Assembly: GCA_031270515.1 (NCBI GenBank)
Contig: JAISXM010000017.1
Span: 1 to 46,792, forward strand
From: Holosporales bacterium
Lineage (GTDB): Bacteria; Pseudomonadota; Alphaproteobacteria; BNTO01
DNA length: 46,792 nucleotides
Direction of reading: 5' to 3'
The notes beneath the pieces were generated by a model. It was not told where the DNA came from and ran no database searches. It saw nothing but the letters and a program-made list of their open reading frames with translations. Below, piece after piece: positions 23,401-43,412 of the stretch. How positions within the stretch are numbered: the stretch's first letter is position 1; each line of letters starts with the position of its first letter. Both the position numbers and the translations under genes were made by a program.

Positions 23401-26400
23401 TAACGAAGCTATTTAACTTTTTCGAATTACAGAATACCATCGACGGATATATAAATAGTGCAGCATCCGTTAGTGAGATGTGCAGCAGAGTTGAATCCTG
23501 GGGGCAATTTTTACGCGAATTTGAGTCACTGGAGAAAATTAAAGAAGAGTACGACTTTTTTACACTACTGCCGTACGAGTGGCTGTCTCCGCAGTTTTTG
23601 CATTCGACTCGCACTTTTCTTGCAAACTACATTAACGAGATTACATATGTCGCAACGAAGAATATTCATACGCTTCGTTTTGTGCATGATTACTTGAACA
23701 CCAATGTCACAAACATATCCCAAGAAACATTTGCTCTCGTTCGGGGCATAAAAAATGTTAAATCGAATTGGGTGCGTTTTATTGCCGCAATATCTCTGCC
23801 GCAAATAGTGACGCCCAACTCTATTCTTTTAACTTTGCCTACATCGTTCATGCAAGCATTGGAGGAAGTACTTGCCATATTTGACGAGATCGTCCGCGAT
23901 CTGTCGGAAAAACCATCAATCTGTAAGGATCGCGCATTCCACTTGTTCGACATAAACCAAGTTGTGCGTGCTATTTGTGACAAAACCTCGATTGCCGATA
24001 TTTGCAGCAACGACACCACTGACCGCGTTACTGGTATTGGCGCACTGCTGACTGCGATCGCCGACGCAACCGCTGCCGATCCCGCGCATCCGGAGCTGCC
24101 GTTTGATGCGGACTGCAGTGGCGTGGAAGTGTCGCTGAGCAACATCGTTTATGGGTTGGAGTTGATCGACGGCAACGTTAGGCACGCAAGCAAAGAAACC
24201 GATTGGTCCAGCTTAAGTCCCGACAACATCCCAGATTATCAAGCATTCGGGTCTGCGCTACACGAAATGCTTGCCGCGTTTCCGCTGAATGTGCACATGT
24301 GCGACCTTTGTAATGTTACTGCAAATGAAATATATATAGCCCGCTGCCGGGAATTAGTACGCTCAATTACAATAAACATTGTGTACATATGTGATCAGCT
24401 GAGCAAGCCATCGTACACATCCGACGCACGAGAACTTGCGGTGGTGTCGGAGTTTTGCGAACGCATGGCTGCTTTTTTTGAGTCAAAAATCGAAGACCCA
24501 GGCACCCGTGATGTTGATGCGTTTCGTTCGTTGGTTGATGTTCTGCAGACGAGCAGCGTTTTGTCCTGGGGGCAGGGGGACTTTGCGCTCCTGGAGGCGG
24601 ACATCGCAAGCATTCAAGCGAATGCATCAATCAACCTGTCCGTCGTTACATTGCCGCGCGATAGGCGCCTCGAGTGGTATCACTTAAGTTTGCTGCGCTC
24701 CTTTAATCGGATTTATGCCAGCCTTGTAAACGCAGGATTATCGCTCAACAACCACCTTGACCTGATTCACACAGGGGCCAGGTTTTCTGCATTTGCGGAA
24801 GAGCTGCACTCTGTCCTAAAGCAAGCCTGGGGCCAGCGCCCGGAGAACTCGCAGGAAGTCAGCTCGCGCAATGTATGGCCGCTGCTGAATATTATTGCGC
24901 ACATTGCAGAGGAAGGGCGTCGCTGGTTTTATGTCGCGCCCGTACAAACGTCGGAGGCGCTTGAGGATGCATGGCCCCGGATCGAACGCTTGGCACGCAA
25001 CTTAAAGGCATTGGATAACCACTTGGATGGCGGGTGGGGCGCCATAGCGGATGTGCCGGGCATTTTCGATGTGCAGGATGAAAATGCGGTTGGCGTGCTG
25101 GACGAAGTGGTTAACAACATTGCCGCGGCGCTGGTTGCGTCATCTGACATCAAGGACGTTGCGACTCATAGCATTGCGGCGCTGTTTACTCGTTACAACT
25201 TCCACTTGGGCGAAATAGTTGCGTCGTTACAGAGTATTGCGCTAAAAGTGGAGGCTGATTATTCGCACTCTATTTCGGAAAACATACGGAATTACCTGCT
25301 GTCGTATGCGCCGTTAACTATACCCGCGTTTGACGCAACAAATACGGAGCAGGTGCTTATCTCGTCAGAAACGGTCGCGCTGCTGGCTTTGTTTCGTGAT
25401 GCAACATTAAGGATAATTGATGCGCTGAATGGGAAGTGTTGCGCTCCAGAGTCGTTATATTACAGCGAGTTGGCGGATGAGTTCTACAAGGTGCGGCATT
25501 TCTTTCGCACGTTAACGGCCGAGCAACTCACGTCCGACATGCCAGAGGTTGCCGCGATTTGTGCGTACATTCAAAGCTTACCGTCCGCGGAGTACGTTGA
25601 GCACCAGGTTCAGCCCGAATTGTTGCTGCACATCAGGGCGCTGGCGTCGCACTTGTGCCCCGACGCGATTGATTTGCCAAAGCGATACACGCGGCATAAT
25701 GAACGACGAAAACAACTTGAGTTGATTAGAATACAGGAGTGTATAGATGGAATTAATCGAAAGTTATATGCGTTAATAATAGACGTTAAGCAGCGTGTCT
25801 TTACATATACGCCGGACGCAATCACCATGCTGCGGGCGTTTCAACACTTCCGCGGCGTTATGGACCGTGCGCTTCCACATGCATTGTCACATAACGACCC
25901 TACGGACTTGTTTTCGCAACCGTTGGATACGCTGCAAGAAAGGCTTGACGCTTTAGTTGACGCGCTGTTGAATTACCGCTGTTGTGTCGAATACGCCAAC
26001 AACATACTTGCACTTCTTAACGCAGTTGAAGGGGCGCAAGTTGGAATTGCCGACGCTGTACACAACAATATTGAGCACGGCATTGCGTTTGACGCCTTGT
26101 TTGCTCAGTTGGTGCACGCGTTCGAATCCGTGGTAGAGCACACGCGTTCGTTCGACACGTTGTTCGACATAGTCGGCGACCTGCAGGGCATTGTGCCGGT
26201 TGGTTACACTCGCGCGTACAGCATTCCGCAGTGTGAGGCATGGCCGTTTGCGCTGCACAAAAGTGCGGAGGCCGTGCAGAATATGTCGATGATATTCGAC
26301 GAGGTCCTTACTTATTGGGGCAATACTCCTCCGGCGTATTCGCAGGCGCTCTATGAGAATATTGTTAAACTCCAAGGATTTATACTAAACGTACGCAATA

Positions 26401-29400
26401 ACTTGCTGCAAACGTTGGATCAGCCCCCAGCGCATTTCGCCGTGTGTCGCACTTGTGTTGCGCCAATTGCGCGGCTGAAGACGGATCTGTGCAGTCGCAT
26501 ACATGCTCAAACGCTGGCAACGCTGGCATCGGTTTTGTTCCAGCGCCAATATGCGGAGGTGCGTCACCGCCAGTTTCGGATTGCGGAGGCGCTGCAAGCG
26601 CTGGAGAATGCGGTTGCTTCGTGTGTTGAGCTGCCCCTAATGGCGGTTAATATTGACGCGGTTTCGTACAATATTACGAATACAACGGTGGCGAACAATT
26701 GGTTTTGTGCTTTGTTGGCGAACTTGCGCACTGTGTCCCAAGAGTATTGTAATGAATCTTTTGATGATAATACGTTTATTGCAAGTATTCACGCGTTTAG
26801 CTCAAATTTATTGCAAGAATATATCAACATAGGTGGCACAGCATTACCTGCGCCGATCCCTTTGGTTGAGCAATATGCGACACCAGATTCTGTTATATTT
26901 GAGCGGTTAGTTGAATATGTAACGAACACATGTAATCGTGTGTATTTATTGTTCAAGTCGTATTTCGAACAACCGTACTCTGGGAACTCAACTGTGCGCG
27001 ACGCCGTTATTATTACGGCGCGTTTTTGCCAAGACACTGCAGCATTGCTGGCGACGCCTTCCTTTGCAGGGCACTATTCGCTTCCAAAGGACGTGCACTT
27101 TAAATTCGCTGCACAGCTGCAATTGCTTGCGAAGCACTTAAATGAAGCGCTGGCGGATTACTCCCCCAAGTGTTGCGAGAACAACAGAGCGAGCCTCGTG
27201 CAGCGCACGTTCGCCCAGTTCGCGGAGGAAGTTGCGTTGCTGACGGACGCTCTTGTTACGCAGTCTGCTCAGGATGGCGACGCGTTTACTTGCAGTGCAA
27301 ACATAACATCGCTCAGCACGTCGCTTGGCTCATTTATAACTCAGCTGGAAAGCGTAGTCACTCATCTCGGGGTGGCGCCTGCGCCTGAAGTTTTGTGCTA
27401 TGACGCAAGCGCGCAAATTATGCAAATTGTGCCAAAACTAAACTTGGTGGTTGGCGCTGCGCATGATATATCAAGCACCGTTGACGCAAGCATCTTGCCT
27501 GCGCAACTTCCGCCAGCATGGGGCGCGGACATGGGGCCAACGGAGGAAAACTTGGTCGCGTTGGCGCGTGTGCTCAGTGCGCTAAGAGATGGACCGCGGT
27601 CTTTGAATCAAAGCTTGGTGCGCTTGCGCGAATATTTCGCACGCACGGGGGAGGTTGCGTACCAGGCGTTGCATGTGCCCAATTTAAAAAACATAAACAC
27701 CGTCCTTACAAGCATGGTCGCGCAGCTTCAGCTTTTGCAAGCTAACATGGTGAAGGCATGTCAGTCATATCAGTACTCGTTGATTATTGTGGATATTGCA
27801 CAAGAAATTAGCAAGTACCCTCCGATTATTGAAGAAATAATCGAGAGCATTAAGCTGCGCTTTTGGGCGCCGTATTCTCATGCGATACATCGCCTACGCA
27901 CGTACATTAGGGCGCAAACGCATGCGATGGCTTTGCTTCGGGATATTGGAGCCACGAATGAGGCCCTAACTGGTGCGGACAAGGATGATAAATATACTCT
28001 GCTGAGGCAATATCTCACGGCGATTAAAGGGCAATTGCAAACGTTCGCGTTGATAACGATTGACGACCTTGAAAGCGTCCACAATGAAGCGGAGATAAGC
28101 CATGTCCTTGATCAATTCGTAGCATTTGCAGATGGCCTTGGAGGTACGTCGACGTCAACACAGCTCGCGCAAATTGGGGGCATATTCGGGCGGTCGCTTC
28201 CTCCTCTTGCCCCAAGCGTCATCCCCGCGACAAATGTGTTTCAGTACATAAATGACAATATTAACTCTATCCTCGAAGAATTGCTTGCGCAGGCTGTGAG
28301 CTTGGGGATTGCCCAAAACGTCAACACAGGGCTTGGGTGCATCACAACACAAGGTTTGTTGACGACTATTGCCGCGTATTTCGAAGCGTCCGGTCCAATT
28401 GCGCGCAACATCGTCAATATGCTTGATCTGTACTCGGTGTTGTCGGATACGTTCTATGGCGGCGAGCGCATGCCTATCCATAATGTTTCTGCACAAGTAA
28501 GCAATACGTTTACTGATATATACGAAAAGATCATACAACTATCTGACTTATTCAATATTGAGCGATGTGGCTTTCTGTTTAATACATACTCATTGGGCAT
28601 CCATCCACAACTTCAGCGGCTCTCCAGTATATTGCAAGCAATTGACGTCGTTGCCGAGTTCAACTGGGCGCTACTGGATGAGCCCAATGGGGACGAGGGG
28701 ACTTCGGTGTTGGAGCTCATTGAAGGAATGACGATGTCTCTGTACAACCTCAGCGAGCATTTGCCTGCGCACTATTACTACATGGCGGATAAGTTGCGGT
28801 ATTGTTCAGCGGGGATTGTTAACGTTTACGTGGAGCAGGTATATGCGGATTTGAACCGCGTAAATAATTTGCTCGCTGGTCAACACAGTGCGCTACAGGC
28901 GCTCCCGCTTACGACGGACAACAGTGCATGCGGGGATACGCTGAATGGAGCACGATTAGATAATTTGAGCGTGACCAACAACATCGCCACATTTCTTACA
29001 CGACTTGTTGAGTTTGTTCGCTCCAGTGGGCCAAGGATCCCATTGAATAACATCCAGAAGCTAATATCATTGCAAAACGCCCTCATGCGCTTGTGCGATG
29101 TGCTGCGCGATGTTAATGGCGTAATTCAGGAAATGTGCACATTTTGTGAGAACGAAGCGGCGAGTCGGACCTTTATTTCCGGCATGGAAGCGTGTGTTAC
29201 GATCATGTACAAAAACTTGGCCGAATTAAGCGATACGCTGGCAGCATTCTGCTGTAGTGTTGACGTCGAAAATGCGCTGATATCGATTGCTCATGGTGTG
29301 AAGGCGCTGGCGGATTACATCACGGGGCAATCGTTCGACGCCGCAAAGCCAGACGCGCTGTTGGACTTTGTCCGCATAATGAACTTGCTGGAGGCGCCCA

Positions 29401-32400
29401 TCGCTGCGTATTTTAGCGCCCCCATACACAGCCCCACCCAGGACGTTGCGCTCACAGGGCTGGCGGCGCTATTGGCGTCTGGGCTCGGGTTGCCGGAGGT
29501 GCCCAGCGAAGAATACATGCGAATTGTTCCATTCAACGAATACGCAAAGAAACAATACGTGAATCAAATAATTGATCATGTTGTTACTATTCCGCGTGTA
29601 TTTGCCCAATGGCGAGCAATATTACAGGGAATGACATTGTCGAAAAATGATTATGCCGTACGCGTGGTCAGTACGTGCATCAATCGCATTGCAAAATTTG
29701 CAGAATTGTTCGAGGGCGCAACGCCAGCAAACTCCTTCCTGCACGACACGGAAGGCGTACTGTTCGTTCGTCAACATATAAGGGTGACACTTATTTCTGT
29801 CGTGGAGGAGTTGGTCGCGCTCAGGAATATATATTTGAACCATGCCGCAGAAAAGGTGGTGATGGAAGAACTGGATGTAACTCAGAATATTCTTGGCGTA
29901 TTGCCTGATGTATTAAATTTAGTATTAGCCAGAATAGAGCAGAACACATCAGACATCAATTCGCACACAGAAAGCATTGTCGCTCGCTTAATCCAACTGC
30001 CGCCTCAAAGCTTGGAGCACTTGCAGCCAGCGTTGGCGCGCCTTGGGGACGCATGGACGGCGGCGACACAACAGCGGCCGGTGGCGTCGTTCGATGACGT
30101 GTGTGGCGGCATTTCAGATATAAACAAATGCCTGTACGCGTACGTTACAAGCTTGCTGAACGCGCAGGGGCAAAACGCATCCATCGCGCACGACAGCACG
30201 AGTCCGGTTGGGGGGCGACTGACGAAGTTCAAGGATGAGCTTGAGCATTTCTTGCAGGCGCTGAACCGCGTTTCCGTCGCTGTAAAAAATCTGGAGTTTG
30301 ATGAAGAGTACGTCGCCTCGCTTGTGAATGAAAGCAGCCCAATCCTCCTGATCCTTGCTGCGAAAGAGCCAATCATGGCGCTGGCACAGACGTTGCGCGG
30401 TCAACTGGCATATGAGAGCAATGAATGGGCATATATACTTGAGTCTTTGGATGGAATGTTTGCCAAGCTCTTGGTTACTATTACAAGCATCAGGGATACA
30501 ATTGCGAATCAGGGCCCAGTCAGAGTATTGTGCACATATAAAGATGTCCTGAACCGCGTGCATTTACTCTCCCAGCAAATAGATAAGATCGTGGGCAACA
30601 GCACCATCGAAGACGCAGAGGCGTTCTTCCGCCAGCTTGTCACGCAAATTGCGGATGCGGCGGAGTTGGCTCCGGTGACTCATGCCGCGCAGTTGGATGC
30701 GATCATTGCGCTGGTCAATAGCGCTTTTTCCGTGACAGTATCTGATGCGTTTATTGAGCCAAACAGGTTGGATGTTGGGTCCATACCTGAGATACAGTAC
30801 AAGACGGAAATAAAGGTCGAGCGCATTCTTACGCAGTGCGATCGCCTCACGCATTTGTGGCTGCAAACTCCGTATGTCCTTAAGCCTGAGTTGATCAATA
30901 ATGTGTCACTTGTACTGGAAAAGGTAAAAGCGTCGCCCAGCAGCTGGAGTAAAGTCGCGAGCATCTTGGAGCGCTTCCTCGGCGAGCTTCGTGTTCCGAC
31001 ATTTTGCCTTGGGCGCAATGCGGTGCTTTGTCAAATTGAAGCAAGCACGGCGAATATGGTTCATGCACTGAATAGTGTTGCGTTGAATATGCATGTTCTT
31101 GCAGAACAAAAGTACGGGGAGCTTCTTGCTGTATTATCCGAATTGTCACCAAATATACACGGTATAAATGATGCGTATAAAACGCTTGTACACGCAGACT
31201 ATTTTGATGTGCAGTATATCAACACGTTGACACAGTTGTCTGTAATAATTGCAAATATTCAGAATAACGTAAATGCTATTGCTACAATATTTAACTGCGT
31301 GCCTAAAGTCGCCCCCCCTTTGACTCCAGCTTTGTGCGAGCAAACAGACCTCCTCATTTCGCGCATTGGGACAAATGTATGCAATGCGCAGAGGGAGCTA
31401 TTCTCGCTGATCGACAGCATCGTTCCTGAGGTAGGGCAAGTCATGCCACTTCGCCAAGAGGTAATCACGGCAATGGCGGACACGTTCGCGCCAATATTCG
31501 CCGAGTTGTGCGATGCCCTGCAATACGTAGCCGCGCATGTTTCTGGCATGACGAACTGTGTCCTCCACAACAGCGTATATCGCCGCGCGTTTGTGACGGA
31601 GCTGGTGCGGCAAGGGGTGATCATGGAGGCGTACCCCGGTAAGTTGGAGCGGCGCTTGCGGCAGTTCAAGGATTCCTACGTGGGCAGCGTCGTTCATGAG
31701 CTGCGTGGAAACGTGGAAAATCTCATGATTTTGGTGCGTGGGTTGGCTCAGGTTGACTGGGATAACAGCAAGCTGGCCTTGGTGAATGCTCGCTTTGAGC
31801 AGCTGCGCGCAAATCTGTACAGCGATGTGAATGCGTGGCTCCACCGCACGGACGACGGCCAGTGGCATGAGTTCGTTAGCCAATTGAAGTTTGGGGACTA
31901 TGTAACGATTCTGCAAAATATTTACTCTGATGTCGGTGCACCTGCTCCTGTGTTGCCAAATCTGCTGCAAACGGTGTTTGGGGAGCGTCAAATCCGTGAA
32001 GATATTACGGCGATATCTCAATTCATGGATACGGTGGTTGGTGTGATTGCGACGGACATTTACCCTGATTTTAGACAAAAACGCTTATATAACCCCGCGC
32101 TTGCTCAGGTGTTTGACGCTGTAATCGCGTTTAGCGCTGTTGCACGTGTGGATTCGTCTGATCCAATTCAGCAGCAATTGTTGGAGTGCTTGTGCCCTGC
32201 TATTGCGCGTGAAGGCTTGAGTCCCATTGTCGCGCGTGAATCGCTGAGTCCTGCGCTTTCGCTTGAAGTCCTGCGCCATTTGGAGTTCATATTGAGCCAC
32301 AATACGTGCTGCGAACCACATACAAGCAAGATGAGCAGCATATTGGATACGTATGCCGCAATTAAGCTCAATTTGCACAGAATGAGTGCTTCCACATTTG

Positions 32401-35400
32401 GTGTGCGCTCCCAAGACGTATTTTTAAAGAGTGGGCCAATCGGCGCCATGGCAGGCAAGCTGGTGGCTATGGTCACCACGCTGGGGACAACATATGCGCA
32501 GACGCAGAACTTGTTGCTTCAGTTGGAAATCTCATCCAACGGCTTGTGCATCAGTTCGCTTGATGAAGGATTGACGCAAGCGTTGGCACATTTCGCGGAC
32601 CAAATGGACGCACTGCAAGCGCACACCGCGAACATGGCGTCGCTGCACTGCGACATTAATGACTTGCAGCTTGGTGAGGCACTGGGCACGGAATTCATGC
32701 AGTTCGACACGAATATTCGTCAGCTAAATTTGTACTACGACGACAACATCGCAACGGCATGGGGCAACTTGAACCAGGCCTTGGCGCAGCAGCACTCGGC
32801 CATGCTTGCTGTAAAGGCAATGCTCACACATAACGAGATTTGTTTCTTGAGGGGGGATGTTCTCGTTGCGCAGTTCAATGAGTTTGATGACTTCCGTGCG
32901 TACATCGCAAGCTCAATCCGCGCGCTGGCTGTGTATAAGGAGTGTGCTCTCGCCCGCAGTGGTATGCATATGTATAGGATTTATCAGCAACTAGCTCCGG
33001 TTGTAATGATTTCGGATATTCTATTTAGGAATGCAACAATCAAAGATGCGCTGATTTTCATAAATAAATTGACGGTTAGTATAAATAATATCGCAGCAGT
33101 GTTGGAGGGAATTCACGACTCCAAAGTTTACGAGGTCTCATATTTGCACGGATTATTAAATCTGGAATATATTGTTTGCGACATAACTGCGGATTTATCC
33201 ACATATATAGCGAAATACGGCGTCGTTATTTCTGCAACACTGGAGGAGAACCTAACGTTCCAATCGAGCGATTTCGCCTTATATTTAGGCCAAATTATCG
33301 ACACAATGGGCACGTCAGGCAGCATATTACTTGCGCTGAAGGATTGGCGCACAAGCATAGCGGCCGAGGACGGAAGCAACCACAACGAGCGCTGCTACAC
33401 GGATATTTTTGCTGCGTTGTGTGCAAAGGTTGAAGTATTGCGAACCATAATAAGTGGTGTAAACGCGAACTTTGCCCCTGTATACGCGCAAACATTCGTG
33501 TTCCCGCCAACGGAAGCGCCCGCTCCATTCAGCCAACCCGTGCTGCAGGCGCTATTTGCACAATTGGCGCAAAACCTCACGTTTGTGAAAAGCGAATTTA
33601 CCGGCCTGCACACGCTTGTGACCAATCCAACGTGCTGCTACAAGCGCTTACAACAGCAAGCATTAATTGCGGCCACCTTCGACAAGCTACGTCGTGCCGT
33701 ACTTGGAGCGGCGCGCAACCTTGTGCAAGATCCGTTTGTATGCGAGCAGGATTTAGCCCCATGGATATTGCGGACCCAAGAGGGAACGTTGGCGCTGCAG
33801 ACGCTGGCGTCTTCGTTAACGAGCATTGCCGTGGATGCGGAGCTTACTTGCCAAGCTAGCCTGATCAGCGACAAAACAGGTCAAGTGATTATTCCTGCGT
33901 TTCAGGCTATGGTGCTTGCCGTAAGCAACATGCTGGCAACAATCGCTCCGCTTGCACCAGAAGACGCGCCGCTTGCGCTCCCGGATTTTGCCAACATATG
34001 TGCCGCGATTATCTCAGGCAATGTGCAGCTGTCATCCATTGCTGCGGGAATGAAGCTTGCTATGCAGGAACTTAAGGTGCAATTAGCTCAAATTGATATA
34101 TTCGCGTACAGCCAAGCCTTTGTGGACGCGCTGAACGAGTTCCTGCTGGCCCTGCGCGCGGCTCGTGTGCAGCTTGGGGAGTTTTGCACGTCGTTTGAGG
34201 GCGAGAACTGTTACGTATGCAATGCCGTCAGCTATACATCGCTGTTGGGGTGTGTCATGGAGAGCTTGCGCGAGTTCGAAGACGTGATTCACTTGATTGA
34301 AGGCAACAGCAGTAAGCGCTATTCACGAACACTGCATGAGCTTGTTACTGCGGTGGAACTGTTTGGACAATACTCGCATGCATTTTTTACGCAAGACTTT
34401 GATGACTTTGATCCGCAAAGAATAGAGATACTTGAGCAAGCATTAAATCTTAACGCGCGCGTATTGACGCAAATAGGCGACAGCAACGGCAATTACACGG
34501 GGATCAAAAATATCATTCACGCCGCCACAGAAGAGTTTGCCGACATTTTATATGTCGCGGATGTGGCGCTGCCTGTCCTAATGCAGGAGGCTCCGGTTTA
34601 TGGGGCAAGCTTGATCGCGCAAGACAGAGTGCGGCTGATGTATGTGTTAACGCGCTTTATAACCCTGGTTGAGCATATGCCCACAGGGCGCGGTCACTTT
34701 GTTGTCCGGTCCACGTGGCAGCGTTTGGCGAATGTGGTTGAGTCGTTCGTCGCAAAGGTCAGGGGCTTCCATACGTCGGACCTTTCCCTTGCGCATGAAT
34801 TGGCCGATCAAGCAAGCGAGCTTGCCACCGCAGAGCAGGCGTTCCTTGAGAAGGTGCGTCAGGCAACGTACTGTGAACCTATCGATGCTGTGATATTTGC
34901 GTTTGTTAATTTCGTGGATGATCTGAACTACGCGTTTAGTACAAGTAGCGCTACATTCATAAACAACCTTTCTGCGCAGGATAGTGCAACGTTTGCGGCG
35001 CGTCTTGATGATGTAACAACTAATATTGCGTCGTTAATTACTGTGATTGCGGATATTACGACTGCTCCAGTAAATGCGTCCCCGTATGTTTGCTCTATTA
35101 ATATGGAGCACGTAACGCAATTGTCGCAACAATTGGACGCCACGAAAGGCGCAGTGTTCAATGTCGTCCAAGTCATGAATCCCTATTTGACGATGCCACT
35201 TCACGCAGAGCCCGCTCATTATCCCGACAAAGTGGTGCTCATTCGGCGCATTGTCGAAATATTAAAATTGTTGCAGAACTCCATGAACGCTGCGTGGCAG
35301 AGTGCCGCCAATTGTCAGGTCCGGGATTACCACAAAGGGACCATTGATTCGGCTAAATTGCTGAATGCAAAGTTAAATGCGCTGGTGCCATGTATTCCGT

Positions 35401-38400
35401 CGCTATTTAATCTTGTGAGCGTGTGCCAGTTTTGTGAGCGGACGGAGATTGCGTTAACGTTGAGCGAAATTCCCGCAATTGTGCAACAGATCCCGAATGA
35501 TATAAATGGGGCGATCCTTTATTTGGAACAAATGTGCTGTTCGCGTCTTGCTTTTCAGACGTGTAATGTGTACGACAAATCCTACGTTATATCTAATGCA
35601 ATGAACGCACTGGCGGGCGAATCTTTGGGGGGAATTGTTGAATTCCTTTGTAATGAGGACATCCAGGCGAATTCATCCGCCCTTATAGAGCTGCTGACGT
35701 CAAATCTGCCGGATAAAAACTTTAACTTAACGCAGTGGGTCAAACTTGCGCCATTGTTTGCTGTTCCTGGAAATGACCACTGTTCCGCCAGAGAGATCGA
35801 ATATTTCTTGGATCAGTGGGATAATGTTCTTGTCCAAATAATTGCAATGTTTCCCACACAATATACAACAGGACCAAATTCTCCTCTGGAGAGGCCGCTT
35901 GTGTATACTTGCGATATATTGCCGAATGTCGTGAATTTGTGCATGGATTCTGTATCGAGTTTGTCGGCTGCGCTTGGCATCCTCATAAACAAAGTGGAAT
36001 ATCATGTATTCGTTTACCCGAAAGTGCTGAATTTGTGTCGATTACTGGCGGAGTTCGTTGGGGCACTTAATTCTCTTTCGTCTATTAACTTGGCGCAGAC
36101 AACTGATGTATTTTGCACAAAGTGTCAGAGCGAAAGCGTTTTTATAAATGCACTGCGTAAAAAGAATGCGTCTGATGTATTAGTGTTCGATGAACTCAGA
36201 ATGCACGTAGAAACATTAATAAAAATATTATCAGATTATTGCGATAACGAAGCCGTTCAAGCCTTTGATTATTTCAGGTTTAACATTTCTTTGCTGAATA
36301 ATATACTTATAAATTTAAGTAGAGAACTTGTTCCTTTTTGGAATAGCAATCTTGTAGATGACTCGAAATACTACGAAATCTTGAATATCAACGACCTTTA
36401 CTCCCGTATGTCCAGCACAGACTACGGCTTAAACGAGTTGCTTCGCTTGATCGTAGCAAATGCGCCAACTGCAAGTACAACATATTGCCAAGTTGGCAAT
36501 ATCGCCCATTTGGCGACGTCGTTTGCCCATAAGTTCGCGGAGGTTGTTGCGCTTTTTGCTGAATTTACCAAGGACTTTAGATATGCAGAGCAGAAGAATG
36601 AATATCAAGAGCTTGCGCCGTCTAATGATAAGTTAGCGCTTGCCAGAGTGCTTAGCGACGTCAAAACTGAGATTGCAAACGTCTTTAGTTCCCTCGAACA
36701 GATATCTACGCAAATCAATTCAAATCAATTGACTACTAATATTAAAATCGCGTCTGGTGTACTTGAACTAAGTAATAACCTTAATGTGCAAATGTCACAT
36801 TTCGAAGCGCTATATCATGCGTGGGGCAACTTCCCTTGTCCGAAATGGAACGATTGTAAAGCATGCGAGATGCAGCTTAGCTTTTGTGACAATTGCGATA
36901 AGGTTCCGCCTCCAGGGTGTTTGTGTAATTTTATAAATGGAACACCTGTGCGTAAGCAAATATGGGATATAAGGTCCAAAATAAAAATGATGGCTGACTT
37001 TTTAGATAGATTGAGCCAAGTTATATCTCCAAACTGTTGCGTTGAGCCATTTAAACCATTATTTCAATTGCCGGATTCTATGCTGATAGTGCAGTGTAAC
37101 GTGTTGGACTTTTTTAGGTGGGCAGACATACTCAATAGTCCGAATTACCTTGTCGAATTCGTAGAATGTCTAAGCACAAATATTTCTTTCGTAGGCGAAG
37201 CATTACACGCAATACTTCAAAAGCGTGAAGAGACTCGTGATAATCCTAATAATTGTCGGATGAAATTGTTCTCCGATGAGCTAGTCCTATTACGTGACAA
37301 TACTTTGAAGCTTGTAAATGGAACAACCGAGATTATTGAGCTGCACCAAATTCCACAGTCATTTAGGCAAAGGTGGGACGATTTGAAACCGACTTGTACC
37401 GAGATACCGTCTATGCTGCCGATTTTTGGGAAGTGTGTTATTCAAATAACGGCGTACTTTGACAAATTCACAGAGCTGGTGCGTACTGCGGAGGAGATTG
37501 ACGCACATAAAGAAGCTCTAATAAACAAGTTGGCGCTCGACCCACTGCAGGTGCTGTACCAACAACTTATAGAGATAGAAGGTTTTGTATCGTCGTTAGT
37601 ATTGGTGGGGGATCAACGGCAAATTTGCGCAAACTGCAACAGAGATGTGATGAACGAAAACTTTACGTTGCTAAAAGAAAACCTTCACCTTTGGGCTGAC
37701 GCAGTACTCAATTTGAAGAATGCGTTTGTGTCAAAGTATTGCTGTGAGGGCACGGACGAGTCGTTTGCTAATGTGGAGTATATCACCAATATTATAAAAT
37801 TAAACGTGGACCAGTTGGCAACATATCGGTTCTCTGTCTATGAGATTTATTATGATATATATGCGGATGAAATAAAGGGGGTTGAGGGCGCCATTGATGT
37901 TGTGCGCGAATATTTGGTTAAATATTTGTCGATTCGCCAATCACTTCCAAAATCAACAGCCGTCGACTTCTGTTTTATGGCGCATATTGGCCCAACGTTT
38001 GTTGACTTGGGGAACATATTGCAGGGGAACGTGCTTGGTGCGATAAGCGCGCTGTTTAACCGCTTGGGGGTGACGTTTATATCGCCAGATCCCGGGATTA
38101 CATTTATCCACGGCACCTGCAGTTCGTTTGGCATACGGCTGGAGTCCGTCGCCAGCGCATTCGACGCCATAGCGACAAACATGCTTAGCATATTCAGCGA
38201 GTTGAGCGACGTCGCGCTGCATCGTTCGCCGGCTCACACCACGGAGGGATACAGCGCCGTTCAAGGGGTGGTGCGCGCGTTGGCGGATATGTCTGTGGTT
38301 ATGTTCGGGATATATACTAACGCAGAGCACAAGAAAATATGTGAAAACTGTAATCATGCCAACGTGTTGTCCCATATTTATAACGGACAGGCAACGCTTG

Positions 38401-40196
38401 CGCGAGTTGTCGGAAGTATACATGCGTATCTAGTAAATCATCGGCACATAAGCCTTGCGGTGGCTCTGAACAGATTCTTGGATGCGTATGGCAAGCTTAC
38501 GTCGACGTTTGATTCGCTGCACTTGGTGGGCGATATTAATCGCTACATAAACGACGCCAATACGGGGCACGCGGGGCAATTGCTATCCATTGTTTATGGC
38601 TGGATCCGGAGTCTTACCAAATTAACCGCGGTTATTCCTGAAATTAGAGGGCTGAAGGACAATTTTGCCCAGCAGTATGCGTTTATTCGCGAGTTGGATG
38701 AGACTAGCGCTCTGGTTAACGAAAGCGCCATTCGTACGCAAGCATTTTTGTCTGACGTGCTGGGGCAAGAGTTTGCGTTTTCCACGCTTGGCTCGATTGA
38801 GTTTTCTTTAGAACGGTATGTGTCGTCCGCGATTTCCATGCTTGATACGTATTCCGCAAACGCAGCCGAGGCGATTCAGTGGCTTTGTGAACACTGCGCA
38901 TACTTTAACATCACCGCAAACGATGCCAGCACATTTGCCGCGATCGCTAGGTTTGCGGATGTTGCTGTCGTCGTTAAGCAGCTGGAGGTTTATTGTGATG
39001 CGGCGTTGTGCCCGATTTCTTCTGGGACGAGGTTTTGGGCGGCGACCGTGCAGTTGAGGGATACGCTTGCGCCGAAAGAAAGAGGGATCATTGCGAATCT
39101 CAACGACATGACATGCTTGTTCATGATTGCGGCACAAAATTTGCGTTTTTCGCCTGAACACATTGATGATGTGGCAAGTTATAGTGAGGACGTGAACCAA
39201 TTTTTTGTGCAGCTATCCGCTTTTGCTGAGTGGATGCGGCAGGTTAAAGGGGGCGACGATTTGTTGGCGAGCACAGCGACATCCCCTGTGCTTGGGGTGC
39301 AGCAAATGACGCGGTGCATCGCGCAGCACATGGGGTATAACGAGGATGTGGTCAATGTGGTGCATGCAAATAGCGTGTCTCAATCGGTGATTCAATTGGC
39401 GGCGTCTGTTCATGCGTTTGGAAGGGATACTTTTGGGTTTATAAGTAAAGCGGCGGGGCTTCATGTGCAACACAGAATCAAAGTCGATTTGCATAACGTT
39501 GTTGTAGTGCCTACGTCTGTATTAGTAATAAAAAAGAACTTAACGCTGATACTTGATGCATATCGCGCGGGCACACTTCCGGAGGCGTGGCGGCTGGCGG
39601 CTGGCGGAGGCGTGGGCGCTGGCGCGAGTGGAGGAGCGGATGCTGGAGCTGGCGGAGGTGTGGGCGCTGGCGCGAGTGTGCTGAATGACGAAGGACAGGC
39701 TGCGCTAATTGAGTGCGTCGACGGGTTGTATCAAACGTTTCAGAGCGTGTATGTCTTGTTGAAAAATGTAAACCGCAGAATCGATGTTGCGCTGTTACAG
39801 GATAGGTTTAATGCGCGAACTCATGACGGAAATGGGATTCCCGTCATTGAAAGGCTGTTTGCCACGGTGTACGACACAACAGTAGGAGTTCCTGTTATCG
39901 TTCAATCTACGCCAGCCACTGATGTACGAGAGGCGTCTGGTGCTGGGGCCGGGGGGGCCGGTGATGTAGGAGGGCCTGGTGGTGATGCAGGAGTACCTAG
40001 CGGTGATGCAGGGGTTGCAGGAGATGAGTCCGGTAATGCAGAAGGGCAGGGCGGACCGCAGAGTGCGTTATTGCTTACGCCGCATGTGGTTATATCGGCT
40101 CAAAGCAGCTCCGTTGTTTCAACAACGGGCGTATTGCTGGACAGAGCTGATGCACTGCATACTAGAATGACGGGAAAGAAATACCTCCGCACGTAA
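17472..40196 (+). CDS. Giant (7,574 aa) signal-peptide-bearing, helix-rich, cysteine-motif repeat protein of unknown function
   Basis: One uninterrupted 22,725-nt ATG-initiated ORF. The N-terminus MFLAKRHFVSRFAAVAALWLGCDDIVHA has n/h/c signal-peptide organisation (VHA cleavage site or a weak LWLGC lipobox). Composition is L/A/I/E/Q-rich and helix-type. I count 15 CxxC and 11 CC motifs. Gly/Ala/Asp low-complexity repeats sit near the C-terminus. All antisense and overlapping ORFs are short. Confidence 0.9.
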   Translation: MFLAKRHFVSRFAAVAALWLGCDDIVHATLDYTTIETGIGTVDTIQQMSAKWAPGNQRTLYNGTGAVWIVGSGAQTLLAYSTGQNDIPSHEETYISGFGKIKKIVNIISQIKAGQSFWDVSSCATSLVDKLESSSVNKVDWPITALLGQMRNNSNQIQGLLGAPSDISASITYFSCLNTIIEELHKARIKTGETTFDGTADDDAATLFALTQIGSRGYSPTLAGAIAGITATGPTTATTVLKGTACWRTIWGTESDTASHSGSMISQLLAAGVGSTTGVGGKSLLENFKEIAASFEIGKFNGNVKMSDFYKYIIPTTPADYILLDRLSTDSSNESSRSKIIEARLNTLSIQECLLFILSEETAPSGTQIMSNSIAIGKTDTVLNHLTNRIKTCCEAMLGKFKVVCCDNVYKSLRQLGDDLYANTQFLQTFALDPFTAIRATDAIVSKQTELSNAISAFNSIKEVDAQNCDDSEIVSKVDALDTIIKAINNAFFSTISKNEVLTSPLNAALTVPVLSYEYCVSVHTIITQHVPQYLDMLYSAINNINTWINDIDITASAADVIHDGLGTLRTFLQALHGVFPGSAIVFKSFCKTEYADASGDLEVPPVGPLIPQCRHITNSSDEILSINTKIPQIMESLTTGIGYIDALQTKLLHIIEQQRLATSLRILDESVFHLSQLIGQVDPSTLVYNSLSVTDVTQCIYNIVHQVIIPPASAFDYPSAILELATALNTLLGNPLSGSYTEPLSFDVDGCEPCTTINSVLRNGIPVYLTQILQSICSINDYIRTTPPEVIAFDTERRRESLAELQAFLTDIQPLFDLSITASAFCEEEAQCLNFSVAPINASILAIKNAMSLGIQDITFVTPFVDHLAECSANDDVHIEILGHVHAIAECWNIIFTDENTMALFDTWDGEQNVMVGVIGKLTSALSAYPLTLPEHSGHIYDIDSSSFSAFVGLLVEAQGSLSVLAGNYALPDTWHAPSNTADLWRAIVDELSQISVNISSWGVRIASIRDCVIPVVGEAFLGLNVALNDVLACFGTEEDGQITINRSICIHHNVPPATWPLNQLTSLAALFGDPDPCGDPMHDCGSAATNLVAIYNALSTDVTPAYVYSKFDEIMACLDGMITTHNLGKLASDVLYELTGELNAPSLSATELRYGYAACMVNALDKIVRMIPCIHNQLQHIIMTKDADLFRIESFNTLIEKVRAVLAILEVRPCPTASIVEWRFPRIEKKWEDFLEALLLLKDDILLNAFVNDELAPVAGLLSSINGRIIVMATNAVQLDGLTALFHAIASRQLADTTVEQELTFWNTQLETYVSDAGAVFEPIPAYTTDVRSLVELLNGFVCRMVGSIFTYARQLTASPASVDNEHYRADLIQHLNTVINVLPHCKAMLHKLIDRFKLLNALHAEGAIDELHYNLQQYMDALLVPPTCIASVNNAVYSIQRVIGAFIDGNPVAFPAISVFPGAPEGCTVMDSLLQMSSNIEEQDAPTLLPATIQRTLEMFAKLPEVIFDLRLTFGDAPDWLEDLKQFQFDAFRLLRNMRTSDVAALFCGYALYDDAIKVIEMYPLEQLHLTINAAISDYEKAIHKCALLDNVRQTAQAASTLHQKLALLPLAEILEPPTTLDSILVQVEQCIAAELTLEYAQQPDDIFSYSDVILKILNEFFFPTFSDTAYEAAPSLQQILDDAAAYILNIAKWFRSLANHSDWSTVKYHLQLSSQLRTLAQLLQGPIASIPDGALCNRCKVDVGAFFNGYVPMIGDIRESCLVIAERCAVCNACKPLVAAASGLAALVESLEAYSADFPQYDKINSVMSIMSELSALPETQMNLSCENSVGFITTLCSKIEAMCAALDLTPKVPDLVTGEHYDCSILEAMCVRMLSSVTKIADKMTDVLYNAQAPPHGNWVAMAELLQGTSTLVSAIKTVFYNIQYCGLCNSVAFSYIFADIETQMDRLVDYVSQLNEQWNTYADYNDNKQILTKLFNFFELQNTIDGYINSAASVSEMCSRVESWGQFLREFESLEKIKEEYDFFTLLPYEWLSPQFLHSTRTFLANYINEITYVATKNIHTLRFVHDYLNTNVTNISQETFALVRGIKNVKSNWVRFIAAISLPQIVTPNSILLTLPTSFMQALEEVLAIFDEIVRDLSEKPSICKDRAFHLFDINQVVRAICDKTSIADICSNDTTDRVTGIGALLTAIADATAADPAHPELPFDADCSGVEVSLSNIVYGLELIDGNVRHASKETDWSSLSPDNIPDYQAFGSALHEMLAAFPLNVHMCDLCNVTANEIYIARCRELVRSITINIVYICDQLSKPSYTSDARELAVVSEFCERMAAFFESKIEDPGTRDVDAFRSLVDVLQTSSVLSWGQGDFALLEADIASIQANASINLSVVTLPRDRRLEWYHLSLLRSFNRIYASLVNAGLSLNNHLDLIHTGARFSAFAEELHSVLKQAWGQRPENSQEVSSRNVWPLLNIIAHIAEEGRRWFYVAPVQTSEALEDAWPRIERLARNLKALDNHLDGGWGAIADVPGIFDVQDENAVGVLDEVVNNIAAALVASSDIKDVATHSIAALFTRYNFHLGEIVASLQSIALKVEADYSHSISENIRNYLLSYAPLTIPAFDATNTEQVLISSETVALLALFRDATLRIIDALNGKCCAPESLYYSELADEFYKVRHFFRTLTAEQLTSDMPEVAAICAYIQSLPSAEYVEHQVQPELLLHIRALASHLCPDAIDLPKRYTRHNERRKQLELIRIQECIDGINRKLYALIIDVKQRVFTYTPDAITMLRAFQHFRGVMDRALPHALSHNDPTDLFSQPLDTLQERLDALVDALLNYRCCVEYANNILALLNAVEGAQVGIADAVHNNIEHGIAFDALFAQLVHAFESVVEHTRSFDTLFDIVGDLQGIVPVGYTRAYSIPQCEAWPFALHKSAEAVQNMSMIFDEVLTYWGNTPPAYSQALYENIVKLQGFILNVRNNLLQTLDQPPAHFAVCRTCVAPIARLKTDLCSRIHAQTLATLASVLFQRQYAEVRHRQFRIAEALQALENAVASCVELPLMAVNIDAVSYNITNTTVANNWFCALLANLRTVSQEYCNESFDDNTFIASIHAFSSNLLQEYINIGGTALPAPIPLVEQYATPDSVIFERLVEYVTNTCNRVYLLFKSYFEQPYSGNSTVRDAVIITARFCQDTAALLATPSFAGHYSLPKDVHFKFAAQLQLLAKHLNEALADYSPKCCENNRASLVQRTFAQFAEEVALLTDALVTQSAQDGDAFTCSANITSLSTSLGSFITQLESVVTHLGVAPAPEVLCYDASAQIMQIVPKLNLVVGAAHDISSTVDASILPAQLPPAWGADMGPTEENLVALARVLSALRDGPRSLNQSLVRLREYFARTGEVAYQALHVPNLKNINTVLTSMVAQLQLLQANMVKACQSYQYSLIIVDIAQEISKYPPIIEEIIESIKLRFWAPYSHAIHRLRTYIRAQTHAMALLRDIGATNEALTGADKDDKYTLLRQYLTAIKGQLQTFALITIDDLESVHNEAEISHVLDQFVAFADGLGGTSTSTQLAQIGGIFGRSLPPLAPSVIPATNVFQYINDNINSILEELLAQAVSLGIAQNVNTGLGCITTQGLLTTIAAYFEASGPIARNIVNMLDLYSVLSDTFYGGERMPIHNVSAQVSNTFTDIYEKIIQLSDLFNIERCGFLFNTYSLGIHPQLQRLSSILQAIDVVAEFNWALLDEPNGDEGTSVLELIEGMTMSLYNLSEHLPAHYYYMADKLRYCSAGIVNVYVEQVYADLNRVNNLLAGQHSALQALPLTTDNSACGDTLNGARLDNLSVTNNIATFLTRLVEFVRSSGPRIPLNNIQKLISLQNALMRLCDVLRDVNGVIQEMCTFCENEAASRTFISGMEACVTIMYKNLAELSDTLAAFCCSVDVENALISIAHGVKALADYITGQSFDAAKPDALLDFVRIMNLLEAPIAAYFSAPIHSPTQDVALTGLAALLASGLGLPEVPSEEYMRIVPFNEYAKKQYVNQIIDHVVTIPRVFAQWRAILQGMTLSKNDYAVRVVSTCINRIAKFAELFEGATPANSFLHDTEGVLFVRQHIRVTLISVVEELVALRNIYLNHAAEKVVMEELDVTQNILGVLPDVLNLVLARIEQNTSDINSHTESIVARLIQLPPQSLEHLQPALARLGDAWTAATQQRPVASFDDVCGGISDINKCLYAYVTSLLNAQGQNASIAHDSTSPVGGRLTKFKDELEHFLQALNRVSVAVKNLEFDEEYVASLVNESSPILLILAAKEPIMALAQTLRGQLAYESNEWAYILESLDGMFAKLLVTITSIRDTIANQGPVRVLCTYKDVLNRVHLLSQQIDKIVGNSTIEDAEAFFRQLVTQIADAAELAPVTHAAQLDAIIALVNSAFSVTVSDAFIEPNRLDVGSIPEIQYKTEIKVERILTQCDRLTHLWLQTPYVLKPELINNVSLVLEKVKASPSSWSKVASILERFLGELRVPTFCLGRNAVLCQIEASTANMVHALNSVALNMHVLAEQKYGELLAVLSELSPNIHGINDAYKTLVHADYFDVQYINTLTQLSVIIANIQNNVNAIATIFNCVPKVAPPLTPALCEQTDLLISRIGTNVCNAQRELFSLIDSIVPEVGQVMPLRQEVITAMADTFAPIFAELCDALQYVAAHVSGMTNCVLHNSVYRRAFVTELVRQGVIMEAYPGKLERRLRQFKDSYVGSVVHELRGNVENLMILVRGLAQVDWDNSKLALVNARFEQLRANLYSDVNAWLHRTDDGQWHEFVSQLKFGDYVTILQNIYSDVGAPAPVLPNLLQTVFGERQIREDITAISQFMDTVVGVIATDIYPDFRQKRLYNPALAQVFDAVIAFSAVARVDSSDPIQQQLLECLCPAIAREGLSPIVARESLSPALSLEVLRHLEFILSHNTCCEPHTSKMSSILDTYAAIKLNLHRMSASTFGVRSQDVFLKSGPIGAMAGKLVAMVTTLGTTYAQTQNLLLQLEISSNGLCISSLDEGLTQALAHFADQMDALQAHTANMASLHCDINDLQLGEALGTEFMQFDTNIRQLNLYYDDNIATAWGNLNQALAQQHSAMLAVKAMLTHNEICFLRGDVLVAQFNEFDDFRAYIASSIRALAVYKECALARSGMHMYRIYQQLAPVVMISDILFRNATIKDALIFINKLTVSINNIAAVLEGIHDSKVYEVSYLHGLLNLEYIVCDITADLSTYIAKYGVVISATLEENLTFQSSDFALYLGQIIDTMGTSGSILLALKDWRTSIAAEDGSNHNERCYTDIFAALCAKVEVLRTIISGVNANFAPVYAQTFVFPPTEAPAPFSQPVLQALFAQLAQNLTFVKSEFTGLHTLVTNPTCCYKRLQQQALIAATFDKLRRAVLGAARNLVQDPFVCEQDLAPWILRTQEGTLALQTLASSLTSIAVDAELTCQASLISDKTGQVIIPAFQAMVLAVSNMLATIAPLAPEDAPLALPDFANICAAIISGNVQLSSIAAGMKLAMQELKVQLAQIDIFAYSQAFVDALNEFLLALRAARVQLGEFCTSFEGENCYVCNAVSYTSLLGCVMESLREFEDVIHLIEGNSSKRYSRTLHELVTAVELFGQYSHAFFTQDFDDFDPQRIEILEQALNLNARVLTQIGDSNGNYTGIKNIIHAATEEFADILYVADVALPVLMQEAPVYGASLIAQDRVRLMYVLTRFITLVEHMPTGRGHFVVRSTWQRLANVVESFVAKVRGFHTSDLSLAHELADQASELATAEQAFLEKVRQATYCEPIDAVIFAFVNFVDDLNYAFSTSSATFINNLSAQDSATFAARLDDVTTNIASLITVIADITTAPVNASPYVCSINMEHVTQLSQQLDATKGAVFNVVQVMNPYLTMPLHAEPAHYPDKVVLIRRIVEILKLLQNSMNAAWQSAANCQVRDYHKGTIDSAKLLNAKLNALVPCIPSLFNLVSVCQFCERTEIALTLSEIPAIVQQIPNDINGAILYLEQMCCSRLAFQTCNVYDKSYVISNAMNALAGESLGGIVEFLCNEDIQANSSALIELLTSNLPDKNFNLTQWVKLAPLFAVPGNDHCSAREIEYFLDQWDNVLVQIIAMFPTQYTTGPNSPLERPLVYTCDILPNVVNLCMDSVSSLSAALGILINKVEYHVFVYPKVLNLCRLLAEFVGALNSLSSINLAQTTDVFCTKCQSESVFINALRKKNASDVLVFDELRMHVETLIKILSDYCDNEAVQAFDYFRFNISLLNNILINLSRELVPFWNSNLVDDSKYYEILNINDLYSRMSSTDYGLNELLRLIVANAPTASTTYCQVGNIAHLATSFAHKFAEVVALFAEFTKDFRYAEQKNEYQELAPSNDKLALARVLSDVKTEIANVFSSLEQISTQINSNQLTTNIKIASGVLELSNNLNVQMSHFEALYHAWGNFPCPKWNDCKACEMQLSFCDNCDKVPPPGCLCNFINGTPVRKQIWDIRSKIKMMADFLDRLSQVISPNCCVEPFKPLFQLPDSMLIVQCNVLDFFRWADILNSPNYLVEFVECLSTNISFVGEALHAILQKREETRDNPNNCRMKLFSDELVLLRDNTLKLVNGTTEIIELHQIPQSFRQRWDDLKPTCTEIPSMLPIFGKCVIQITAYFDKFTELVRTAEEIDAHKEALINKLALDPLQVLYQQLIEIEGFVSSLVLVGDQRQICANCNRDVMNENFTLLKENLHLWADAVLNLKNAFVSKYCCEGTDESFANVEYITNIIKLNVDQLATYRFSVYEIYYDIYADEIKGVEGAIDVVREYLVKYLSIRQSLPKSTAVDFCFMAHIGPTFVDLGNILQGNVLGAISALFNRLGVTFISPDPGITFIHGTCSSFGIRLESVASAFDAIATNMLSIFSELSDVALHRSPAHTTEGYSAVQGVVRALADMSVVMFGIYTNAEHKKICENCNHANVLSHIYNGQATLARVVGSIHAYLVNHRHISLAVALNRFLDAYGKLTSTFDSLHLVGDINRYINDANTGHAGQLLSIVYGWIRSLTKLTAVIPEIRGLKDNFAQQYAFIRELDETSALVNESAIRTQAFLSDVLGQEFAFSTLGSIEFSLERYVSSAISMLDTYSANAAEAIQWLCEHCAYFNITANDASTFAAIARFADVAVVVKQLEVYCDAALCPISSGTRFWAATVQLRDTLAPKERGIIANLNDMTCLFMIAAQNLRFSPEHIDDVASYSEDVNQFFVQLSAFAEWMRQVKGGDDLLASTATSPVLGVQQMTRCIAQHMGYNEDVVNVVHANSVSQSVIQLAASVHAFGRDTFGFISKAAGLHVQHRIKVDLHNVVVVPTSVLVIKKNLTLILDAYRAGTLPEAWRLAAGGGVGAGASGGADAGAGGGVGAGASVLNDEGQAALIECVDGLYQTFQSVYVLLKNVNRRIDVALLQDRFNARTHDGNGIPVIERLFATVYDTTVGVPVIVQSTPATDVREASGAGAGGAGDVGGPGGDAGVPSGDAGVAGDESGNAEGQGGPQSALLLTPHVVISAQSSSVVSTTGVLLDRADALHTRMTGKKYLRT
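32203..32255 (+). repeat. 27-bp tandem duplication (AREGLSPIV / ARESLSPAL) in the giant ORF
   Basis: gcgcgtgaaggcttgagtccc and gcgcgtgaatcgctgagtcct lie one 27-nt period apart. Confidence 0.7.
39603..39678 (+). repeat. 48-bp Gly/Ala-rich repeat (about 1.6 units) near the C-terminus of the giant ORF
   Basis: ggcggagg(c/t)gtgggcgctggcgcgagtg occurs at 39603-39630 and 39651-39678. It encodes GGGVGAGASGGADAGA GGGVGAGAS. Confidence 0.85.
39960..40040 (+). repeat. 21-bp (7-aa) degenerate tandem repeat, GD(V/A)G-type
   Basis: ggtgatg(t/c)agg occurs at 39960, 39981 and 40002. It encodes GDVGGPG GDAGVPS GDAGVAG DESGNAE. A G7 run lies just upstream at 39951-39957. Confidence 0.8.
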
Positions 40197-41019: not shown

Positions 41020-41170
41020 AAAAGACTCCATAATAAAAAAACGCTCATTCTTTAATGTATCAGACGTGCGCAGCAATAGTCAACAGCATAAATCACGAAA
41101 AAAACGATTGACTTCCAATGCAAAGTAAGTGACACTACATCTTGGAACGAGGGGCAGAAAGCTCATCTGC

Positions 41171-43339: not shown

Positions 43340-43364
43340 GGACGAATTTTTGAATAATTCGTCC
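43340..43364 (+). terminator. Hairpin in the ndk-pgsA spacer
   Basis: ggacgaatt-tttgaat-aattcgtcc, a 9-bp perfect stem 59 nt after the ndk stop. No T-tract, so it could be an attenuator or RNA-stability element rather than a terminator. Confidence 0.3.
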
Positions 43365-43412
43365 TATAAAGGACGCTCGAAAAGTAATAGTCTGAAGATT
43401 TGGTGTTTTTGT

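Follow-up and report, generated by a model that had tools for sequence, protein, structure and literature searches.

A ladder of conserved cysteines in a giant, predicted all-helical protein of a Holosporales bacterium

The Holosporales live as obligate symbionts of protists, and to our knowledge their envelope proteins and the proteins with which they interact with their hosts are almost uncharacterized. Contig JAISXM010000017.1 of a Holosporales bacterium (assembly GCA_031270515.1), whose 46,792 nucleotides are the window analyzed here, carries a giant open reading frame (ORF) on its forward strand (17472..40196, +), which takes up almost half of the contig and encodes a protein of 7,574 codons with 170 cysteines. 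An original prediction, made by reading the sequence alone, held that CxxC and CC motifs recur in this protein and mark tandem units of a new repeat fold. The locus thus raises the questions of whether the cysteines define a repeat and what they do in it. We found that the giant protein represents an undescribed, lineage-restricted repeat family that is defined by a ladder of cysteines and belongs to no named family tested.

Cysteine motifs and the homolog family

The translation contains 16 CxxC motifs and 11 CC dipeptides. Cysteine makes up 2.24% of its residues, which in our own judgement is not the low content that had been assumed. The earlier count of 11 CC was right, and that of 15 CxxC had missed an overlapping CNAC at aa 1775; an additional CKAC lies at aa 6462 (nt 36855). 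All nucleotide coordinates quoted at that time were correct. They include three modules in which a CC follows a CxxC at nearly the same distance: CTFC at aa 3889/3892 (29136/29145) with CC at 3927/3928 (29250-29255; 34 residues between), CQFC at 5985/5988 (35424/35433) with CC at 6022 (35535; 33 residues between), and CANC at 6719/6722 (37626/37635) with CC at 6757 (37740; 34 residues between). The codons of the first cysteines in the C-terminal part were likewise confirmed at 35424, 36114, 36885, 37626, 38340, and 38886.

Both motifs are more frequent than expected by chance. In 5,000 shuffles of the giant protein, each motif was expected 3.8 +/- 1.9 times (P < 2e-4 for 16 CxxC; P = 8e-4 for 11 CC), and the outcome was the same when residues were shuffled only within 500-aa blocks, so that the proposed enrichment withstood the shuffled-sequence control that had been suggested for it. 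The same shuffles gave no enrichment of CxC (2), CxxxC (0), or CxxxxC (1), and because these remain at or below expectation, the excess is specific to two spacings. When intact motifs were placed at random, the three CxxC-(33-34)-CC modules were also unexpected (P ~3e-4 to 6e-4). The position before CxxC is hydrophobic in 12 of the 16 cases, and Asn follows in 6 (P = 1.4e-4); the residue after CC is acidic or small, and a hydrophobic, heptad-like pattern follows it. The pattern had been assigned to the C-terminal fifth of the protein, where the motifs are indeed found, but CC and CxxC recur from aa 393 on.

To place the protein among its relatives, we searched exhaustively with phmmer using aa 5901-7100 as the query and found 13 homologs, with E values from 7e-14 to 5e-179 and matches at corresponding positions. 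Ten are giants of 5,687-7,880 aa, and the remaining three, of 1,003-2,577 aa, are presumably fragments. Those with names are called 'hypothetical protein [Holosporales bacterium]' and come from metagenome-assembled genomes (MAGs; e.g., MDR0631182.1, MDR2464494.1, and MDR0633123.1). The giant protein is a member of this unnamed family of Holosporales giants: it aligns collinearly with the others over its full length and shares their cysteine positions. A word-index protein search with aa 5901-7574 returned nothing, not even the giant protein itself, and no match was found when genome contigs were scanned with the giant protein or metagenome contigs with one family alignment. A term search of the text of a recent review of the order found no mention of the protein.

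The excess of CxxC and CC is present in all homologs, the full-length ones having 13-21 CxxC and 9-20 CC against 2.3-7.7 expected; CxC is enriched in none of them, and CxxxC is at or above expectation in only a few. In the full-length alignment, identity to the giant protein is 17-32% for full-length homologs and up to 38% for the fragments. Cysteine is nevertheless the most conserved residue type, 36% of its columns being invariant, whereas Trp reaches 23% and the other types at most 5%, and conservation at >=80% applies to 81% of the motif cysteines versus 34% of other cysteines. Between aa 4500 and 7000, almost all motif cysteines are invariant, and the near-invariant columns of aa 5860-6860 comprise 19 Cys in addition to a single Ser and a single Pro. 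The unit alignment showed no His, Asp, or Glu to be conserved across units.

Repeat units and their ladder

The family alignment was cut into 260-aa windows, and these were compared with hhalign, using reversed sequences as decoys. The best score was 88.6 (probability 97.7%) in comparison with 47.1 for the best reversed decoy, and many pairs of windows exceeded the decoy. The matches form a ladder, with offsets of 235, 240, 241, and 251 aa between adjacent units, ~495-507 aa between units two apart, and ~735 aa between units three apart. Within each unit the conserved cysteines occupy four stations, here called CxxC, CC, C1, and C2. In unit D, which we use as the reference, their intervals are CxxC-38-CC-77-C1-48/49-C2-74-next CxxC, giving a sum of ~237 aa. 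The intervals vary somewhat from unit to unit, and family-wide spacings peak at 34-39 aa from CxxC to CC, 70-75 aa from CC to the next Cys, and 232-255 aa from CxxC to CxxC.

Five tandem units, all on the forward strand, are supported at aa 5885-7095. Unit A (35124..35846, aa 5885-6125) has C2 at 5948, CQFC at 5985/5988, CC at 6022/6023, and C1 at 6104, and unit B (35847..36581, aa 6126-6370) has C2 at 6147, CTKC at 6215/6218, the single C6257 at the CC station, and C1 at 6339. In unit C (36624..37355, aa 6385-6628), C2 at 6456 is accompanied by a cysteine knot that holds the CxxC, followed by CC at 6522/6523 and C1 at 6595. The knot (36837..36926, aa 6456-6485, +) reads C-x5-CxxC-x6-CxxC-x7-CxC, its 30 residues including 7 Cys. 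Homologs P0008, P0009, and P0010 have a longer version, in which a Cx2Cx2Cx3C spacing is reminiscent of ferredoxin-type cluster motifs. The knot may represent the insertion, at the CxxC station, of a metal site or of a small disulfide knot. The pattern is clearest in unit D (37356..38075, aa 6629-6868), whose six cysteines (C2 at 6642, CANC at 6719/6722, CC at 6757/6758, and C1 at 6834) are all invariant in 13 sequences. Unit E (38076..38756, aa 6869-7095) has C2 at 6883 and CENC at 6957/6960 and lacks the CC and C1 stations in every homolog.

The original estimate was of at least six tandem, diverged units of about 240 aa. The ladder is real, but the proposed sixth unit, marked by CEHC (38886..38897, aa 7139-7142, +), did not hold up: the alignment of homologs shows C7139 in the giant protein alone and C7142 in 11 of 13 sequences. 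A scan of the whole protein with the profile of unit D recovered aa 6132-6359 (score 73.6), 6390-6628 (71.8), and 6866-7088 (67.0), and nothing significant at aa 7117-7272. Because nothing aligns there and the stations of the five units do align, we count five units and not six. When the five units were aligned across the 13 homologs, the four stations came into register and, beyond hydrophobic positions, little else was shared.

Further upstream the same scan gave scores above that of the best decoy (46.0), namely 51.1 at aa 3831-4040 and 47.6 at aa 5263-5484. The first of these is an upstream unit (28962..29591, +) that contains the CTFC at 3889/3892 and the CC at 3927/3928. A second upstream stretch (33540..34226, aa 5357-5585, +) has CC at 5388/5389, C5460, C5510, and CYVC at 5580/5583 in the same station order; all its station cysteines are invariant in 13 sequences, and no CC follows CYVC. 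With a hidden Markov model (HMM) built from the five units of 13 homologs, the upstream units were marginal, at 16.4, 15.7, and 12.9 bits versus 13.9 for the best decoy. Between aa ~4000 and 5900 (29500-35100), the profile offsets were ~403-412, 864-884, and 1268-1297 aa, which are not multiples of 240 and suggest either a longer unit of ~410-440 aa or the alternation of a unit with an insert free of Cys, of which aa 5584-5800 would be an example. Upstream of its five tandem copies, the unit would recur in a looser or longer form.

The self-comparison of the single sequence that had been recommended as a check would have missed the ladder, as its signal is barely above that of reversed decoys and family profiles are needed. 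Fragment self-searches with phmmer gave 14, 25, and 74 matches at E < 1e-3, 1e-2, and 0.1, in comparison with 2, 16, and 54 for decoys, and most of these self-matches are helical texture. BLASTP of the giant protein against itself returned the identity hit only. An HMM made from the CxxC windows recovered only its seeds, without expansion in an iterative, jackhmmer-like search; leave-one-out HMMs around CxxC were mostly negative or contaminated by neighboring units, the sole clean case being aa 2277 (23.6 bits), and those around CC with cysteines masked found nothing. Autocorrelation of Cys, Pro, and hydropathy along the giant protein gave no decisive signal. Cysteines aside, the units are diverged past single-sequence detection, and the lesson for method is that a repeat invisible to self-comparison surfaced through its cysteines and the profiles of its family.

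Predicted fold and the role of the cysteines

We modeled aa 5860-6860 with AlphaFold using an alignment of 14 sequences, the single-sequence model being useless (predicted local distance difference test, pLDDT, 36). The alignment-based model has a mean pLDDT of 81.5 and a predicted template modeling score (pTM) of 0.57 and is all-helical with essentially no strands, in agreement with the helical units that had been predicted. All conserved station cysteines are modeled in inter-helix loops or at helix termini, and only the less conserved C6157 lies mid-helix. In unit D, in the numbering of the model, C783 starts the helix 783-817, CxxC (860/863) precedes the helix 865-895, CC (898/899) comes after it, and C975 lies between the helices 939-965 and 977-1000. 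The numbers of main helices between successive stations are 1, 2, 1, and 2, giving six per unit: in the model, helix a leads from CxxC to CC, helices b and c from CC to C1, helix d from C1 to C2, and helices e and f from C2 to the next CxxC. Helix a has 22-31 residues and is briefly interrupted, once or twice, in units A and B.

This arrangement bears on which cysteines could meet. In unit D, CxxC and CC are modeled at opposite ends of a helix of 31 residues, an estimated ~45 A apart, and therefore could not bond each other. The hairpin stapled between CxxC and CC that had originally been envisaged is thus contradicted by the model, in which the two motifs flank one helix at opposite poles. 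If the helices pack up and down, as we assume, C2 and CxxC would share one pole and CC and C1 the other, and the stapled hairpins are likely those from C2 to CxxC and from CC to C1, with two main helices each.

Searches for a known counterpart found none. Foldseek gave nothing meaningful, with a best E of 0.018 and template modeling (TM) scores <= 0.13 against the PDB and TM <= 0.15 against BFVD; designed coiled-coil bundles, at E >= 1e-4, were all that a profile search of PDB sequences retrieved; and Pfam gave no family for the giant protein at E <= 0.01 except one sub-threshold chance hit. The suggestion of a new repeat fold is in accord with this, the lack of Pfam, PDB-sequence, and Foldseek matches marking an undescribed repeat family, and the fold, if confirmed, would be a new repeat class because no relative was found in Pfam, the PDB, or BFVD.

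Known motif families were considered individually. Thioredoxin-fold CxxC oxidoreductases (Trx, DsbA) have no Pfam match here, and the model is all-helical. The heme site of c-type cytochromes, CxxCH, is excluded as His follows none of the 16 CxxC, the residues at that position being T, K, N, K, N, N, V, E, N, E, Q, E, D, N, N, and A. Metal-binding knuckles, raised as a possibility at the outset, fit poorly in their classical form (zinc knuckle, ribbon, or treble clef): there is one CxxC per unit, with no second pair near it and no conserved His, and in units A, B, D, and E the CC comes only past a helix of 22-31 residues. The exception is the knot of unit C with its CxxC-x6-CxxC. The spectrin repeat and other catalogued helical bundles gave no Pfam hit and no significant structural match, and the twin Cx3C/Cx9C (CHCH) pattern was rejected with 0 CxxxC versus 3.8 expected and with Cys-Cys pairs 10 residues apart not in excess.

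Evidence on pairing comes from cysteines lost together. In unit E, C6883 (C2) and C6960 (the second Cys of CxxC) are replaced jointly in the clade of P0008, P0009, and P0010 and separately in P0013, and both are kept elsewhere. In unit A, loss of C5948 was seen only where C5988 is also lost. Further upstream, C2921, 84 aa after the first Cys of a CC (C2837), is present in four of the five sequences with C2837 and in none of the five without it. These co-losses would pair each doublet with the single cysteine ~75 aa away. Moreover, unit E and the stretch at aa 5357-5585 keep the trio of C2 and CxxC and are without the trio of CC and C1 in all homologs, and such retention by trios fits two independent clusters at the poles.

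The N-terminus of the giant protein (17472..17555, +; MFLAKRHFVSRFAAVAALWLGCDDIVHA) resembles a signal peptide with a lipobox-like LWLGC and, without a twin arginine, looks like a Sec signal by eye; most full-length homologs start similarly on inspection. The earlier proposal of an exported protein is thus plausible on the strength of this N-terminus. Under the mechanism that we propose, Sec export would bring the protein into an oxidizing compartment in which structural disulfides would form, one between C2 and the second Cys of CxxC and another between one Cys of CC and C1. Each bond would tie the start of a helix to the end of the next but one, clamping a helix-loop-helix hairpin at one pole. 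In this way a giant protein in the envelope or at the surface of an intracellular symbiont would gain a rigid array that resists proteases.

On balance we favor, with modest confidence, the view that the conserved cysteines are structural disulfides clamping hairpins in an exported giant array of helical bundles, because of the apparent export signal, the invariant cysteines sited in loops, the paired co-loss, and the lack of CxxCH, of a fourth ligand, and of a thioredoxin fold. Several observations weigh against it. Each pole has three conserved cysteines, an odd number, and the cysteine count per unit is even in 38 of 64 cases, which is not significant. The co-loss is imperfect, as three homologs retain C5948 without C5988, and unit B retains C1 without the first Cys of CC. 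Unit E and the stretch at aa 5357-5585 have CxxC without CC and C1, leaving the first Cys of CxxC without an obvious partner, and C3186 and C3234 co-occur across the would-be helix a, hinting at another pairing there. The host setting, furthermore, may be anoxic, since the isolate name of the closest MAG leads us to suspect a termite gut.

Three other explanations compete with this one. One holds that composition or chance produced the pattern in a very long protein containing Cys and that there is no repeat at all. It could appeal to a single-sequence self-comparison that hardly beats reversed decoys and to the Cys-masked leave-one-out HMMs that find nothing; it is refuted by the shuffles, the excess in all homologs, the near-invariance of cysteines at 17-32% identity, and the ladder above decoys, and we give it practically no credence. 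The pole trios (C2 with CxxC and CC with C1) could instead be metal sites, maybe structural zinc with water or a carboxylate as the fourth ligand, which would suit reducing or anoxic conditions such as a host cytosol or an anaerobic flagellate. The three invariant cysteines per pole, the nonsignificant parity, the CxxC-x6-CxxC of the unit C knot with its Cx2Cx2Cx3C extension in three homologs, and the closest relatives being Holosporales MAGs for which we suspect anoxic termite guts as the source all speak for this. We nevertheless consider it unlikely: no His, Asp, or Glu is conserved across units to serve as the fourth ligand, an adjacent CC is generally a poor chelating pair for one ion, and the joint loss of C6883 and C6960 while C6957 stays invariant is a better fit to a lost disulfide pair. 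As the N-terminus appears by eye to be Sec-like and without a twin arginine, the protein would also cross unfolded and therefore carry no Fe-S cluster through.

In the remaining explanation, some of the invariant cysteines, namely the leading one of CxxC and the trailing one of CC, would stay unpaired in the monomer and be available for intermolecular cross-linking into a lattice or fiber or for thiol-disulfide exchange. One invariant cysteine does remain per pole after both covarying pairs are assigned, and CxxC persists in units that lack CC and C1. The argument is one by elimination, however; the leftover cysteines could pair in ways hidden from a summary of secondary structure, and neither Pfam nor the all-helical model indicates a thioredoxin fold. 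We regard it as distinctly unlikely. More speculative still, and improbable in our estimate, is an undescribed fold family, a helical rod specific to Holosporales endosymbionts, in which two covarying disulfides per cysteine-ladder unit would clamp helical hairpins and one invariant unpaired Cys per pole would cross-link adjacent molecules into a covalent periplasmic or surface lattice. The infectious forms of the Holospora type have dense periplasmic or fibrous surface material, the source being silent on this protein (PMC11909080), and such a lattice could build material of this kind.

Partial parallels can be drawn with known systems. Ebh of Staphylococcus aureus is a cell-wall-associated protein of ~1.1 MDa with tandem helical-bundle repeats of ~126 aa and no known cysteine pattern. 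The Holosporales protein resembles it as a very large, apparently exported bacterial protein of many tandem all-helical bundle units, presumably elongated, but has no sequence or Pfam relationship with it, and its unit of ~237 aa is defined by six conserved cysteines. The DBL and CIDR domains of Plasmodium PfEMP1 are likewise helical, a few hundred residues long, and arrayed in tandem within a very large exported protein, with conserved cysteines as the main invariant amid divergence; they are eukaryotic and unrelated in sequence, however, and differ in cysteine number and spacing, and we found no Pfam DBL hit and no Foldseek match in the PDB. In the eight-cysteine motif of plant nsLTP and prolamin-superfamily proteins (C...C...CC...CxC...C...C), each Cys of the CC bonds a different partner. 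That motif shares with our units a helical bundle and an adjacent CC at a helix-helix turn, whereas the plant domain is a single one of ~90 aa with four disulfides and a CxC, and the Holosporales unit is tandem and ~237 aa long, with CxxC and six cysteines. CHCH proteins are similar in that disulfides clamp a helix-loop-helix hairpin, but the presumed clamp here would run from a doublet in a loop to a single Cys ~75 aa off, across two long helices.

For further work, the cysteine ladder provides a means of recognizing the family, natural domain boundaries for expression and structural studies, and a testable disulfide-clamp hypothesis.

C-terminus, composition, and neighboring genes

The C-terminal tail of the giant protein has Gly/Ala/Asp-rich low-complexity segments at 39597-39680 (aa 7376-7403) and 39930-40046 (aa 7487-7525) and is poorly conserved overall, although several homologs have in common, close to their C-terminal end, a short motif of the form (V/I)(I/M)(E/K)RLF...D..G.P. 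The very end, ...KKYLRT, is non-aromatic and poorly conserved. A substrate of autotransporter, two-partner, or type I secretion was rejected, with no such Pfam domain in the giant protein and a non-aromatic C-terminus.

The base composition of the gene is uneven. Its norm is mostly a GC content of ~0.50 with a third-position GC of 0.53-0.62, the first 900 codons being somewhat lower, and the values fall to 0.40-0.41 and 0.42, respectively, at 35472-37271 (aa 6001-6600). This low-GC segment spans the end of unit A and units B and C and could be mosaic or recombined, with a lower-GC relative as its source.

A second giant ORF, of 3,807 aa (64-11487, +), begins 64 nt from the edge of the window. 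It matches PATR repeats (E = 2e-20), passenger-associated transport repeats typical of autotransporter passengers, and has 49 Cys and no CxxC; we saw no resemblance between the 3,807-aa and 7,574-aa proteins, without comparing them directly. Five neighboring ORFs (11653-13806, 15218-17200, 40408-41076 on the reverse strand, 44141-45289, and 45293-46585) have no Pfam or NCBIfam match, and an exact look-up of one neighboring protein gave no match. The 717-aa ORF among the five has a signal-peptide-like start and lies in another low-GC stretch (GC 0.40 at 12-14 kb). The recognizable neighbors are a transporter of the AI-2E family (14060-15157), a weak beta-helix protein (41342-42610), and a PgsA-like CDP-alcohol phosphatidyltransferase (43350-43997), whose best match, at 58% identity, is in a Holosporales MAG.

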